Made by a program: the position numbers and the translations under genes
Origin: Myxococcales bacterium
GTDB lineage: Bacteria > Myxococcota_A > Polyangia > Fen-1088
NCBI GenBank assembly: GCA_043759805.1
Contig: JAYUPZ010000410.1
Span: 1-37,150, forward strand
DNA: 37,150 bases
Reading direction: 5' to 3'
Notes under the pieces: model-generated
Seen by the model: only the letters and a program-made list of their open reading frames with translations
Told to the model about the DNA's origin: nothing
Databases searched by the model: none
Shown here: positions 28,608 to 34,892 of the stretch, in pieces
Numbering within the stretch: position 1 is the stretch's first letter
How the letters are laid out: the number at the start of each line of letters is the position of its first letter

Positions 28608-31600
28608 CTACCCGTAGAGCCAAACGCGCAACAGCGAAACCAACTGATCGGGGTCGACGGGTTTGGTGATGTAGTCCGACGCGCCCGAAGCGATGGCGTT
28701 CTCACGATCGCCTTTCATGGCCTTGGCGGTGAGCGCGATGACCGGTAATTGTAGCCATTGTGGTTGCGCGCGAATGCGGCGGGTGGCTTCGTAGCCGTCC
28801 ATCTCCGGCATCATGACGTCCATCAACACGAGCGCGATGTCGGGGTCATCGACCAGTCTTTCCAGAGCTTCGCGGCCGTTTTCGGCATAAACCACGTGCA
28901 TTGCATGCTGCTCGAGGATCGTGGTGACTGCGAACAGATTGCGCCCGTCGTCGTCGACAAGAAGTACCTTTTTGCCGGCGAGCGCCGGATCGGTCTCGGC
29001 GTTCCGACGCAGCATCGCGCGCAAGGCCGGCGGCAGATCCGCCTCAACACGGTGAAGGAACAAGGCGGTTTCGTCGAGCAGTCGCTCGGGCGAACGCACA
29101 TCCTTGACGACAATGCTCTCCGCGAGCTGCTGGATTTCAACTTCCTCGGCGCGCGAGATCTCGCGCCCTGTGTACACAATGATCGGCAACCGGTGGCCTT
29201 CCGGTTTGTCCTTGATGGCGCGGATGAGCTCTATCCCCGACATCCCGGGTAGCTTGAGATCAACCACCATGCAATCGAAGCGGGTGGTGGCGAGGGTTGT
29301 CAGCGCCTCCTCGCCGGACGAAACTGCCAGCGTTTCAACGTCGCCCGCACCAATCAATTCGATGATGCTTTGGCGCTGCGTTTCGTCGTCCTCCACGATC
29401 AGCAATTTGCGCACCCGCTTGTCGAGAAAGTTTCGGATGCCGACCAGTGCCTCATCGAGGCGCGCCGAATTGGCGGGCTTGCGCAGAAATGCAATCGCAC
29501 CACACTCAAGACCGCGTTTTTCATCGTCCAGTGCCGAGATGACATGGATGGGCAAGTGCCGCGTCTCTTGGTTGTGCTTGAACTGATCCAGCACGAACCA
29601 GCCATCCATGTCTGGCAAACGAAGATCCAGGGTCACCGCGTCGGGTTTGACGGTGCGTGCCAGCTCCAGCGCATGCGCGCCGGTGGATGCCACCACTGCG
29701 CGAAAGCCGCGATCCCTCGCCATGCCAAGGAGAATGCGCGCGAAGGTTTCGTCGTCCTCCACGATTAACAAAACCCGATCGCCTGGTTTGATGATGTGCC
29801 GATCGTCGGCAAAGCGCTGCGCGACCGGTTCGGGCTCCGTCTCCAGCACCACCTTTCGACGGGCTGCTTTCGGCGAATCTGCGGAAACATTCGCTGCCGG
29901 GCGGGACGATGCCACGCGCGCACGCGGTTGGTAGGAATCCGGGAGGTAGAGCGTGAAGGTGCTGCCCGCCCCTACCGCGCTCTGCAGGCGGAGTTCACCG
30001 CCCAAGAGATCGGCAATCTCGCGGCTTATCGCGAGCCCGAGCCCCGTGCCGCCGTACTTGCGGCTCGTGCTGCCGTCGGCCTGCTGAAAAGCCTCGAAGA
30101 CGATGCGCTGCTTTTCAATCGGGATGCCAATGCCCGTGTCAATGACCGAAAACGCAATCACGCGTCCGGCACTGTTGAGACTTTCGTTGTCGACCGACCA
30201 GGCCGCATCGGCGACGGCAAAGATGTGTAGCTTGACGGTGCCGCGCTGGGTGAATTTGAGCGCGTTGGAGAGCAGGTTTCGTAGCACCTGGCGTAAGCGC
30301 ATGTCGTCGGTGCGGAGCTCGCCGGGCAGATCCGGGTCGAGCTCAATGGCCAACGTCAAGCCGCGTTCCTCGGCAATCTGGTGGAAGGTGCGATTGACGT
30401 GATCGCGAAGGCCCTGGAAGGTCACTGCAGCGATCTCCACATCCATGGTGCCCGATTCGATCTTCGCAAGATCGAGGATCTCATTGATGAGCGACAGCAG
30501 ATCAGCGCCCGATTGATTGATCGTCCGGGCGAACTCTATCTGCTTGTTCGATAGATTCCCGTCGCGGTTGTCCACCAGCTGACGCGACAGGATGAGCAAA
30601 CTGTTGAGCGGCGTGCGCAGCTCGTGCGACATGTTGGCCAGAAATTGCGACTTGTAGCGCGAGGTAAGCGACAGCTGTTCGGCCTTTTCCTCCAGCTCTT
30701 GCTTGCCCAACTCCACCTCGCGGTTCTTGCGTTCGACCTCGCTCTTCTGCTCGGAAAGCTGGCGCGCTTTTTCTTCCAGTTCCTCGTTGGTTTGTTGCAA
30801 TTCCTCCTGCTGGGTTTTTAGTTCCTCGCCCATACTTTGCGACTGGCGCAGGAGTTCGTCGGTGCGCATCGTGGCCTCGATGCTGGTGACCACGATGCCA
30901 AGGCTCTCGACCAGCTGATCGAGGAAGGCCATTTGAATGTCGGTGAAGCGCTGGAATGAGGCGAGTTCAATGACCGATCGTACCTCGCCTTCGAAGAGCA
31001 CCGGCACCACCACCAGATTGAGAGGGGGCGCGTCCCCGAGCGAGGAGTTGATGCGCACGTAATCGGACGGGACATCGGTGATGAGGATCTGTTTCTTCTC
31101 GTGTGCGCACTGGCCAACAAGACCCTCGCCCAGGGCAAAAACAGTGGCAACCGTCTTACGTTCGCAGAAAGCGTAGGACGCAAACAGGCGCAAGGCGGTC
31201 TTGCCCTCGTGGTGCTCGGCCATGAAGAATGCGCCGTGCTGCGCACTTACCAAGGGCGCAAGTTCTGACAGGACGTCATTGGCCACCGTGACGAGATCGC
31301 GCTGCCCCTGGAACATGCGGGTGAAACGCGCCAGGTTGGTTTTCAGCCAGTCCTGATCGCGGTTCACCCGCGTGGTTTCATCGAGCGTCCGAATCATCTG
31401 GTTGACGTTGTCCTTCAGCAACGCCACCTCACCCTGCGCCTCGACCGCGATCGATTGCGTCAGATCACCCTTGGTCACAGCCGTTGCGACGTCGCCAATC
31501 GCGCGCACCTGGCGGGTGAGATTGCCAGCCAGCTCGTTAACGTTGTTGGTCAAGGCGCGCCACACCCCGGCGGCACCGGGCACGTCGGCCTGTCCACCCA

Positions 31601-34600: not shown

Positions 34601-34892
34601 CCATTTGGCCCCACTCGCCGCGGGCGGCGGCGCGCGAAAGACGTTTTTGCGTGCGACCTTCGCGTCCAACGCTCTGCTGCAGCTCGACCACTTCGGTTTT
34701 TAGGGAAGCGGTGTATTGCACCAGATCGTTGAACGCATCCGCGATCTGGCCGTCGACGCCGTCGAGATCGTCGGGCAGCCGGACCGCCATCTCGCCACGC
34801 CGGAAGGCGCGCAGGGCTGCGAGCACCTGTCGCGATGTCAGAGCGGGAGCATTTTCCGAGCGGGTGGCGTGGTGCTTATCAAGAGAACGCAC
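28608..34892 (-). CDS. Soluble hybrid sensor histidine kinase: ~25 tandem HAMP domains, GAF, coiled coil, HisKA-HATPase, three receiver domains (2094 aa)
   Basis: No TM segment is present. HAMP-like heptad units run from aa ~20 to ~1171, with the xGDLxxxI motif at aa 125, 222, 314, 406, 498, 590, 682, 774, 866, 958, 1050 and 1142. GAF-like region at aa ~1190-1335; Glu/Gln/Lys-rich coiled coil at 1345-1410; H-box [15 protein letters not shown] (His1423); HATPase ([19 protein letters not shown]). Receivers: LLIVEDDE...[11 protein letters not shown] (Asp1756), LLIVEDDE...[11 protein letters not shown] (Asp1878), VLLVDDDG...[11 protein letters not shown] (Asp2025). Confidence 0.9.
31380..34277 (-). 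repeat. Intragenic tandem repeat, period exactly 276 bp (92 aa, one canonical plus one divergent HAMP), about 10.5 copies; more diverged HAMP units continue to ~34835
   Basis: The 9-mer (G/A)CGCACCTG recurs on the plus strand at 31503, 31779, 32055, 32331, 32607, 32883, 33159, 33435, 33711, 33987 and 34263, each exactly 276 nt apart. The 20-mer CATGTTGACGTTGTCGGTCA occurs at 31809, 32085 and 32361. Confidence 0.9.

Follow-up and report, generated by a model that had tools for sequence, protein, structure and literature searches.

The window analysed here, a 37,150-nucleotide stretch of DNA from a Myxococcales bacterium (contig JAYUPZ010000410.1), encodes a soluble hybrid histidine kinase of 2094 aa that is a member of the AskA/AskB-type poly-HAMP hybrid kinase family and has the modal array length of that family. 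Its domain order, assigned with Pfam, is poly-HAMP, GAF, DHp/CA and three receivers. The family is already published and structurally solved, and the locus adds an ordinary member to it.

Domain composition and phasing of the kinase

The reading frame of the poly-HAMP gene is uninterrupted across 6.3 kb, and an identical copy of the 2094-aa protein was found in the protein database (entry P0005). The coordinates of the gene, of its parts and of the neighbouring partner gene are collected in Table 1. Hydropathy was calculated according to Kyte–Doolittle in 19-residue windows; the peak value was 1.47, and since none of the windows exceeded 1.6, the kinase has no transmembrane segment. An upstream sensor domain was not detected by Pfam, with just 16 residues preceding HAMP1.

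Table 1 Features of the poly-HAMP kinase locus, in window coordinates
Feature	Position	Strand	Basis and details
Poly-HAMP kinase gene, complete	28608..34892	(-)	2094 aa, GTG start; ORF list, translation, Pfam, identical database protein
HAMP1 (aa 17-62), N-terminal capping canonical HAMP, D1 type	34707..34844	(-)	Gapless alignment to AskA HAMP1 in 9trk_A; D1 type as defined in PMC13446029
HAMP2-HAMP4 (aa 63-205)	34278..34706	(-)	HAMP3 = aa 109-159 with 5-residue linker insertion
HAMP5-HAMP23 (aa 206-1079), array centre; 46-aa HAMPs paired into units of exactly 92 aa	31656..34277	(-)	GDL phasing, unit matrices, Tandem Repeats Finder period 276
HAMP24-HAMP25 (aa 1080-1171), divergent cap at the C-terminal array end	31380..31655	(-)	Unit matrices, family consensus
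Conserved junction and GAF (aa 1172-1335)	30888..31379	(-)	Pfam GAF_2, E 6e-17
Single long signalling helix from GAF to His1423, about 124 residues (aa 1318-1441)	30570..30941	(-)	Helix H193-316 in the AF2 model of the fragment
Kinase core, HisKA/DHp (aa 1414-1481) and HATPase_c (aa 1529-1652)	29937..30653	(-)	Pfam, motif positions, PDB kinase-core matches
Three receivers (about aa 1706-1818, 1829-1943, 1974-2088)	28629..29777	(-)	Pfam Response_reg, 3 stretches
Partner gene, 586-aa REC-HisKA-HATPase-REC hybrid kinase	34901..36661	(-)	Pfam; upstream of the poly-HAMP gene

According to the domain table, 25 consecutive HAMP domains extend from aa 17 to aa 1171 (window 31380-34844) with no other domain between them, and are made up of one capping HAMP (D1) followed by 12 C-D2 pairs (non-canonical, then canonical) with a length of 92 aa. 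GDL motifs recur at aa 125, 222, 314 and onwards to aa 1142, in one step of 97 and ten steps of 92 with zero indels, eleven of the motifs (aa 222 to 1142) thus being spaced by exactly 92 aa; the single 97-aa step is caused by the linker insertion in HAMP3. Tandem Repeats Finder reported a period of 276 nt with 8.9 copies and a score of 1837 at 31738-34204. The soluble array of about 25 HAMPs that the initial annotation had placed at 31380-34835 was borne out with nearly the same boundaries, as were the alternation of canonical and divergent units in strict 92-aa pairs and the connection of the array to a GAF domain, a kinase and three receivers.

In the Pfam search the protein matched HAMP (PF00672; E 5e-100, 11 stretches) and HAMP_2 (PF18947; E 2e-95, 12 stretches), the other matches being GAF_2, HisKA, HATPase_c and three Response_reg. 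The two HAMP models pick up the 12 canonical units only. Searched singly against Pfam, the divergent units gave zero matches even at E<=10, and HAMP1 gave a marginal HAMP match (E 0.11). The divergent units and HAMP1 are assigned to the HAMP fold by gapless sequence homology to AskA as crystallised in 9TRK: aa 11-295 aligned without gaps to the six-HAMP structure 9trk_A (E 7.7e-90, 54% identity), and each of the 12 non-canonical units has 59-77% identity to AskA HAMP6. An interface Trp is present in 12/12 non-canonical units (GEWGQM in HAMP2, G[IVT]W in HAMP4-24), together with conserved G..G motifs.

HAMP3 carries the linker insertion, and the proline that kinks its N-terminal helix in the family is absent, with HHS instead of xPT. 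This proline was found in 116/118 homologues and in 41/44 loci, and is missing only in the clade of the query (query, L001, L002, L034) and in one other protein. It is a secondary, non-defining feature of the family, and its absence is the sole point against family membership.

In an AF2 model of the fragment (pLDDT 83), the C-helix of HAMP25 runs on into the N-helix of the GAF domain. Foldseek returned generic GAF neighbours only, at 13-23% identity (PDE6, PtsP, fRMsr), from which no GAF ligand can be named. The junction-GAF module was recovered in 1982 cluster representatives at E<=1e-30, and family comparison revealed a conserved 16-residue motif at aa 1361-1376 within the GAF-DHp signalling helix. 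In the kinase core, the H-box SHELRTP with the phospho-acceptor His1423 and the N, G1 and G2 boxes are all present, and the receivers retain their phospho-acceptors Asp1756, Asp1878 and Asp2025; judged by these motifs, the catalytic residues of the DHp/CA core and of the receivers are intact. Pfam detected no MCPsignal domain in the protein, its output being the kinase, and the kinase contains no Hpt domain. Neither the poly-HAMP kinase nor the 586-aa partner matched any NCBIfam model at cutoff, and a promoter/terminator scan 3′ of the poly-HAMP gene gave nothing beyond shuffled expectation.

Family, related systems and gene neighbourhood

Kinase-associated (AskA-like) poly-HAMP proteins, composed of poly-HAMP, GAF, DHp/CA and receivers, were described as a family of 4778 kinases in NR90 (Coles et al. 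2026, PMC13446029). Membership calls for at least five HAMPs joined directly in a row, against 25 in the window kinase. In Myxococcus xanthus, AskA (MXAN_0712) has 21 HAMPs and AskB (MXAN_6735) has 31, with domain architectures alike (PMC13446029). The window kinase shares with both the soluble nature, the D1 cap followed by 92-aa C-D2 di-HAMP modules, the HAMP3 linker insertion, the interface Trp, the junction Gly, the GAF domain, DHp/CA and the three receivers. It differs from them in its 25 HAMPs, a number between those of AskA and AskB, and in the replacement of the HAMP3 proline by His, a change found otherwise only in L001, L002 and L034. Close homologues have been characterised in part, through the genetics of AskA/AskB and the crystal structures 9TRK/9TRJ from AskA (PMC13446029).

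For an array-length census, 44 genomes were selected by the C-terminal module alone, independent of array length, and HAMPs were counted from the HAMP3 landmark. Arrays of 25 HAMPs were the commonest (18/44 genome loci; range 15-33, at least six phyla), and among relatives sharing the output module array length ran from 15 to 37 HAMPs. The 92-aa spacing with the single 97-aa step at HAMP3 was invariant in 42/44 loci and 115/119 proteins. More than 8000 matches were obtained in the protein database, the top 120 of which share the architecture, and at least 600 matching stretches in a species-representative genome collection. The initial annotation had taken length and architecture to be unusual; this did not hold, as the same architecture defines the published family, AskB is longer, 25 is the mode and relatives reach 37.

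Fungal group III kinases (Nik1/Os-1/Hik1/TcsC) feed the Ypd1-Ssk1/HOG pathway and are targets of fludioxonil and ambruticin action. They resemble the window kinase in their 92-aa canonical/divergent pairs, cytosolic location, lack of an upstream sensor and hybrid kinase output; the HAMP pairs are clearly homologous in sequence, with fungal proteins among the top matches, and the 92-aa HAMP pair had rightly been named as common to these kinases (PMC3848655). A fungal protein typically contains about 4-6 pairs, whereas the window kinase has 12 pairs and a cap; CaNik1p, for example, has nine HAMPs and a single REC domain (PMC3848655). In precomputed Pfam lists the matched fungal proteins have no GAF domain, in contrast to the window kinase with its GAF and three receivers. 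The figure of only 5-6 repeats given earlier for fungal kinases does not hold generally, since two Dacrymycetes proteins gave 26-28 pair matches.

Chemoreceptor-associated poly-HAMP arrays (HAMP groups A/B) and multi-HAMP receptors, among them Aer2 and FrzCD, are likewise soluble, with alternating canonical/non-canonical HAMPs, fixed linkers and tight packing, and Aer2 has interspersed PAS-heme. The window kinase matches Aer2 weakly in sequence (3vol_A, E 1e-4). The chemoreceptor-associated arrays act through a methyl-accepting domain that couples to CheA, whereas the window kinase is without such a domain. They belong to other HAMP sequence groups and evolved independently of the kinase-associated arrays (PMC13446029).

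The stop codon of the partner gene lies 8 nt ahead of the poly-HAMP gene start, and on the strength of this short gap the two genes are probably co-transcribed. At 49/63 relatives' loci, the poly-HAMP kinase has a receiver-led gene in the same orientation no more than 3 kb away. The arrangement is reminiscent of askB and askC, which are adjacent, in that the direct neighbour is a further hybrid kinase containing a receiver; AskA REC3 interacts with the AskC REC domain, and AskB binds AskC (PMC7643160). In the window the partner is located upstream of the poly-HAMP gene and not, as in the Myxococcus system, downstream of it; this and the missing HAMP3 proline are minor peculiarities of the locus. 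Neither an Hpt protein nor an obvious terminal response regulator for the pathway was found in the window, and translation of 36662-37150, upstream of the partner gene, gave no plausible protein. The window neighbourhood is bacterial (TamB, BamA-like, ABC-2 transporter), as are the relatives. Judged by the nearest relatives, the uncultured source organism probably belongs to Myxococcota and is related to Kofleriaceae.

About a third of the relatives have a CheR gene beside the kinase, often together with CheB. The window contains neither gene, among relatives the presence of CheR did not strictly correlate with whether the GAF-DHp helix is long or short, and a literature search on poly-HAMP kinases returned no mention of an association with CheR/CheB. 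On a tentative reading, to which we give a rather low probability, the poly-HAMP kinase would across phyla form tier one of a conserved two-kinase module and signal to a neighbour that invariably starts with a related receiver, followed by a second kinase or a GGDEF-EAL output. CheR, often accompanied by a receiver-less CheB, in the same operon in about a third of genomes would on this reading mark the soluble kinases as methyl-accepting, with adaptation through reversible methylation of glutamates, perhaps in the conserved signalling helix. The locus of the window would in that case stand for a subclade in which the gene order is inverted, the HAMP3 proline lost and CheR/CheB missing nearby.

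Proposed signal transmission and role of the array

Very probably, the product of the region is the rod for input and transmission in an AskA/AskB-type poly-HAMP hybrid kinase that is soluble and presumably dimeric, and whose family is the bacterial counterpart of the fungal group III kinases. The array would relay a conformational change via GAF and helix to His1423, with output probably to the partner kinase. The 54% identity to 9TRK suggests parallel four-helix bundles of a dimer, arranged along a common two-fold axis. By analogy with crystal structures and models of AskA (PMC13446029), the input helix of each HAMP would be a continuation of the preceding domain's output helix, giving one supercoiled four-helix rod, and neighbouring HAMPs would pack via conserved junction glycines and the conserved tryptophan. 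The length of the rod is estimated at tens of nm. A structural rationale for the fixed linker length in poly-HAMP arrays was given for the family (PMC13446029), and in the window kinase the exact 92-aa phasing is presumably maintained because any indel would break HAMP-HAMP packing; the HAMP3 insertion forms a β-hairpin in the AskA structure (PMC13446029). Canonical and non-canonical HAMPs may take opposite helix-rotation states, and the conformational change may run through the rod in a zig-zag manner, either by propagation or as a shift in equilibrium (PMC13446029). This rotation model is based on crystal structures of six AskA HAMPs and AlphaFold modelling, and its authors think simultaneous switching of the whole array unlikely (PMC13446029). 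The signal would pass GAF and signalling helix and thereby set autophosphorylation at His1423, from where output would probably proceed via the receivers to the co-transcribed 586-aa hybrid kinase, in a two-kinase module like AskB-AskC, as the gene context suggests.

Alternatively, the array itself could be the sensor, with a distributed input (water activity/osmolarity, temperature, small molecules or covalent HAMP modification) shifting the packing of many HAMPs together, an idea already put forward for the fungal group III kinases. The kinase being without upstream sensor domain and membrane anchor is in line with this, purifying selection acts strongly on every unit although the duplications are old, and fungal arrays have been implicated in osmosensing and fungicide response, with HAMP modification proposed (PMC13446029). 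CheR, often with CheB, beside relatives would be compatible with a covalently modified site at some place in the protein, but the window has neither; moreover, none of the bacterial members has a known ligand or stimulus, ambruticin in Myxococcus bound AskC and not AskA or AskB (PMC7643160), and the GAF domain between array and kinase could equally be the sensor. Taken together, we consider a sensing array rather unlikely.

Still less probable is an array whose main role is that of a rigid ruler or scaffold, on which partner proteins or DNA would dock or which would serve as a length-selected spacer, with input coming from GAF or the partner kinase. The modal length of 25 is kept in at least six phyla, and the order of the units is preserved, but array length differs, from 15 to 37 HAMPs, between relatives that share the output module. 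Docking would be compatible with the binding of AskA, AskB and AskC to one another and to MrpC/FruA and with the in vitro binding of AskB to promoter DNA (PMC7643160), as well as with an HTH_6 match in the window kinase; this match, however, is weak and below the Pfam threshold (E 0.0011, 19.4 bits vs cutoff 28.3) and overlaps HAMP helices, and the 16 residues before HAMP1 are not markedly basic. Mutations of junction glycines and core in the fungal proteins lead to signalling phenotypes (PMC13446029), which argues against a scaffold.

Age and integrity of the repeat units

Nucleotide identity among the array units is 61-83%, with third codon positions at about 45-73%, near saturation. The units are mostly positionally orthologous to those of the Kofleriaceae locus L001 (protein 63% identical, also 25 HAMPs): best unit matches between query and L001 were 72-85% and generally diagonal, usually equal to or above within-protein matches, and two or three central units broke the diagonal pattern. 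Recent intragenic amplification or concerted evolution was accordingly rejected for the most part, these central exceptions aside. The last two query units are 77-84% identical to the last two of L001, L002 and L034 and at most 61% to other query units, and HAMP23, HAMP24 and HAMP25 are kept as distinct types across the family (family consensus). It is hardly credible that short-read metagenome assembly expanded or collapsed the repeat number and that the 25-HAMP array is not real as written: the record is a metagenome-type contig of 37 kb, and contigs of about 27/71 relatives' loci end inside the array, so such repeats do break assemblies, but the divergence of the units allows unique read placement, the frame is open throughout, unit order is mostly collinear with L001, itself of 25 HAMPs, and 25 is the family mode; an artefact was rejected on unit divergence and collinearity.

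The single locus is of little weight, being one more modal-length example in a family of thousands with crystal structures and a mechanistic model, and is useful as a clean reference case for a stably maintained 25-domain array. The family stays interesting, as it is homologous to fungal fungicide-target kinases and the input signal of the bacterial arrays is, as stated in the initial annotation, still unknown (PMC13446029). The receiver-led partner and the CheR/CheB of relatives could point to pathway wiring and adaptation. In the lineage of the window, the old, diverged and positionally orthologous units show the array to be a stably maintained 25-domain rod and not a recently amplified repeat.

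Extent, domain identity and family of the array

The translated kinase was cut at 46-aa steps, by which 25 HAMP domains were delimited over essentially the span of the roughly 25 proposed in the initial annotation (see table). Its GDL motif recurred at aa 125, 222, 314 ... 1142, that is with a single 97-aa step followed by ten spacings of exactly 92 aa, which bears out the exact phasing claimed there, and Tandem Repeats Finder returned a period of 276 nt (8.9 copies, score 1837). Pfam matched HAMP (E = 5e-100, 11 stretches), HAMP_2 (E = 2e-95, 12 stretches), GAF_2, HisKA, HATPase_c and three receivers. 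The poly-HAMP observation was confirmed far beyond chance. The Kyte–Doolittle maximum was 1.47 and no 19-residue window exceeded 1.6; the kinase is therefore soluble, and the reported absence of a transmembrane segment stands.

Assignment of the units to HAMP by profile succeeded for the canonical units and failed for the divergent ones: in isolated-unit scans, both PF00672 (HAMP) and PF18947 (HAMP_2) matched canonical units only, HAMP1 reached E = 0.11, and the 12 non-canonical HAMPs gave no Pfam match even at E ≤ 10, so that automated domain counts for such proteins will be about half the true number. The HAMP-fold identity of the divergent units comes instead from structure: aa 11–295 of the kinase align gaplessly with the six HAMPs of Myxococcus xanthus AskA crystallised as PDB 9TRK (chain A; PMC13446029; E = 7.7e-90, 54% identity, 33–75% per HAMP). 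All 12 divergent units were 59–77% identical to the non-canonical HAMP6 of AskA and kept the conserved tryptophan, which in the AskA crystal hydrogen-bonds to the preceding canonical HAMP (PMC13446029).

Coles et al. 2026 (PMC13446029) described two soluble-protein families that carry long poly-HAMP arrays. In the kinase-associated family, with 4778 members in NR90, the array opens with a D1 HAMP at the N terminus, continues with di-HAMP modules that pair a non-canonical (C) and a canonical (D2) HAMP, and precedes GAF, DHp/CA and at least one receiver; AskA has 21 HAMPs and AskB 31 (PMC13446029). The window protein, laid out as D1, 12 C-D2 pairs, GAF, kinase and three receivers, agrees with every defining point and belongs to this AskA-like family. 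The 97-aa step is due to a linker insertion of 5 residues in its HAMP3, itself a family-specific feature. In AskA, the HAMP3 proline (LVxPT) puts a kink in the first helix of that domain (PMC13446029). Of 118 homologous proteins, 116 have this proline, as do 41 of the 44 genome loci; in the window it is replaced by His (HHS, in LTHHSG), and it is otherwise missing only in L001, L002 and L034 (two Kofleriaceae MAGs and one gammaproteobacterial MAG) and one other protein. The HAMP pairs are homologous to those of fungal group III kinases, like which the protein would work; it differs from these by its GAF, three receivers and bacterial context, and for these reasons is not one of them. The chemoreceptor-type poly-HAMP and Aer2-type multi-HAMP classes were rejected.

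Coordinates of features in the window and of example CheR/CheB loci in relatives
Feature	Position	Strand	Basis or remark
Poly-HAMP kinase ORF, GTG start, 2094 aa	28608..34892	-	ORF list and translation
Poly-HAMP array, 25 HAMPs, aa 17–1171	31380–34844	-	sequence cut at 46-aa steps
Tandem repeat, period 276 nt	31738–34204		Tandem Repeats Finder
HAMP3 start, aa 109–115	34548–34568		
GAF-DHp helix	30570–30941		
Glx-rich motif, 16 residues, aa 1361–1376	30765–30812		
Partner kinase, 586 aa, REC-HisKA-HATPase-REC	34901..36661	-	Pfam; stop 8 nt before poly-HAMP start codon
ORF with partial DUF1552/HXXSHH match	27861–28538	+	profile positions 220–307 of 307
Two-component system	24191–27779	-	
Two-component system	9438–12265	+	
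ORF, 351 aa, ZU5	15290–16345	-	PF00791, E = 3e-6
CheR/CheB, L005	13068–14577		local BLAST
CheR/CheB, L013	13053–14590		local BLAST
CheR/CheB, L048	12931–14515		local BLAST
CheR/CheB, L072	3325–4832		local BLAST

Array length, phasing and age

A database search with the kinase gave at least 8000 matches, the best 120 of which were 1869–3162 aa long, nearly all of the same architecture, and came from Acidobacteriota, Verrucomicrobiota, Cyanobacteria, Gemmatimonadota, Proteobacteria and others. One genome per species was scanned with the C-terminal 922 aa only, a query not biased by array length (at least 600 matches), and the junction-GAF module as sole query gave 1982 50%-identity cluster representatives at E ≤ 1e-30. 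Di-HAMPs were counted using an HMM made from the units of the window array, with HAMP3 as the anchoring landmark. In 44 complete loci, 15 (n = 4), 17 (1), 19 (1), 21 (10), 23 (2), 25 (18), 27 (5), 31 (2) and 33 (1) HAMPs were found; 25 is therefore the mode, and the claim that no array this long is known to feed GAF, kinase and receivers is not supported, AskB having 31. Arrays of 25 occurred in Myxococcota, Cyanobacteria, Gemmatimonadota, Acidobacteriota, Alphaproteobacteria and a Bacillota-labelled MAG, and the maximum was 37 among proteins ranked by bit score, a ranking that favours long arrays. Any spacing other than 92 after HAMP3 was seen in 2 of 44 loci and 4 of 119 proteins; perfect phasing is a family property, not peculiar to this gene.

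Two fungal (Dacrymycetes) kinases, P0030 (Dacryopinax, 3162 aa) and P0038 (Calocera, 3035 aa), had 26 and 28 di-HAMP matches at 92–93 aa spacing, hence more than 50 HAMPs each, far above the 4–6 pairs usually quoted for fungal group III kinases. About 27 of 71 relatives' contigs begin inside the array (L003, L004, L012, L016, L019, L021–L023, L027, L031, L035 and others); the repeats commonly break short-read metagenome assemblies, so public array-length counts are biased towards assemblies that got through.

Units of the window array shared 57–83% protein and 61–83% DNA identity pairwise, with third-codon positions 42–73% identical, near saturation at this G+C content. Against L001, a 63%-identical Kofleriaceae protein also with 25 HAMPs, best matches lay mostly on the diagonal (75–85%) and generally equalled or exceeded the best within-protein match. 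Assembly expansion is rejected, and recent amplification in this lineage largely so, on the unit divergence and these mostly diagonal matches. The first four and last three HAMPs form distinct conserved caps, so that length variation among relatives lies in the central modules. The array in this lineage is thus an old, fixed series, each domain of which is individually conserved.

Gene neighbourhood and partner kinase

Among the 63 relatives' loci with enough flank, 49 had a receiver-led gene on the same strand within 3 kb, defined as one starting with a receiver at least 38% identical to the first receiver of the 586-aa partner (range 38–61%). Usually this gene directly follows the poly-HAMP kinase; an upstream position is confined to the query's clade and a small number of others (L001, L002, L034, L044, L062, L055). 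The output it encodes differs between loci (HisKA/HATPase, with REC or lacking it; PAS-HWE kinase; HisKA_3 kinase; GGDEF-EAL). In Myxococcus, askC is the gene directly after askB, the products of the two bind one another in vitro, and REC3 of AskA interacts with the REC domain of AskC (PMC7643160). The window likewise has a hybrid kinase adjoining the poly-HAMP gene, a likeness of arrangement to askB-askC.

On the opposite strand, in the stretch separating the poly-HAMP kinase from the next kinase, is an ORF that matches only the last third of the DUF1552/HXXSHH model and looks like a gene remnant. Two further two-component systems comprise a 979-aa Reg_prop/Y_Y_Y HisKA_3 kinase with a LuxR-type regulator, and an OmpR-type regulator with a HisKA kinase. 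A further bacterial ORF matched ZU5, a domain mostly known from animal proteins.

Kinase core, CheR/CheB genes and role of the array

In an AlphaFold2 model of aa 1126–1500, made from an alignment of 31 sequences and with a mean pLDDT of 83, HAMP25 ends in a helix that runs on into the N-terminal helix of GAF, and one unbroken 124-residue helix follows the GAF core up to the H-box (His1423). Foldseek returned only generic GAF neighbours (13–23% identity), so no GAF ligand can be proposed. By motif position, the H, N, G1 and G2 boxes and the receiver aspartates 1756, 1878 and 2025 are intact. The GAF-DHp helix bears a highly conserved Glx-rich motif and occurs in relatives either in the short form of the window or about 35 residues longer; the longer form looks like a duplication of the motif-bearing segment.

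Of about 73 loci searched by local BLAST, 25 have CheR directly after the poly-HAMP kinase and 13 have CheB as well; at least five phyla are represented (Cyanobacteria, Acidobacteriota, Gemmatimonadota, Myxococcota, Actinomycetota). A 26th locus, L011, had only a weak opposite-strand match. The pair often stands ahead of the receiver-led second kinase, and where the latter is 1.5–1.9 kb downstream, the two genes between are CheR and a receiver-less CheB. No strict link between helix form and CheR presence was found among relatives, and local BLAST found no CheR/CheB in the window. The neighbouring genes suggest that methylation-based adaptation may act on a soluble kinase. Together with the Glx-rich motif, and with no mention of a CheR or CheB association found in the poly-HAMP kinase literature searched, key papers included, they make reversible methylation of poly-HAMP kinases a hypothesis worth testing, one not directly about the window protein.

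Neighbouring HAMPs would touch via helix-capping glycines and the conserved Trp, and canonical and non-canonical HAMPs would take opposite rotational packing states, zig-zagging along the array (PMC13446029); such packing would explain gain and loss by entire 92-aa modules only, and suggests that what reaches GAF and the signalling helix is a conformational state, not length alone. The same authors consider it unlikely that a long array switches all at once, and allow for relay, equilibrium shift, tuning by length, ligand binding or modification (PMC13446029). In Myxococcus, AskA and AskB are redundant in development, ambruticin binds not AskA/B but the neighbouring AskC, and AskB shows in vitro binding to promoter DNA (PMC7643160). 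As the initial annotation stated for the input signal, no stimulus is known for any bacterial member, and two rivals are live, namely that the array is itself the sensor and that it is a scaffold. The window protein is a modal-length member of a known family with two small clade-specific deviations, and the reading to which we commit is that its array would act as the relay and integration rod of an AskA-type kinase.
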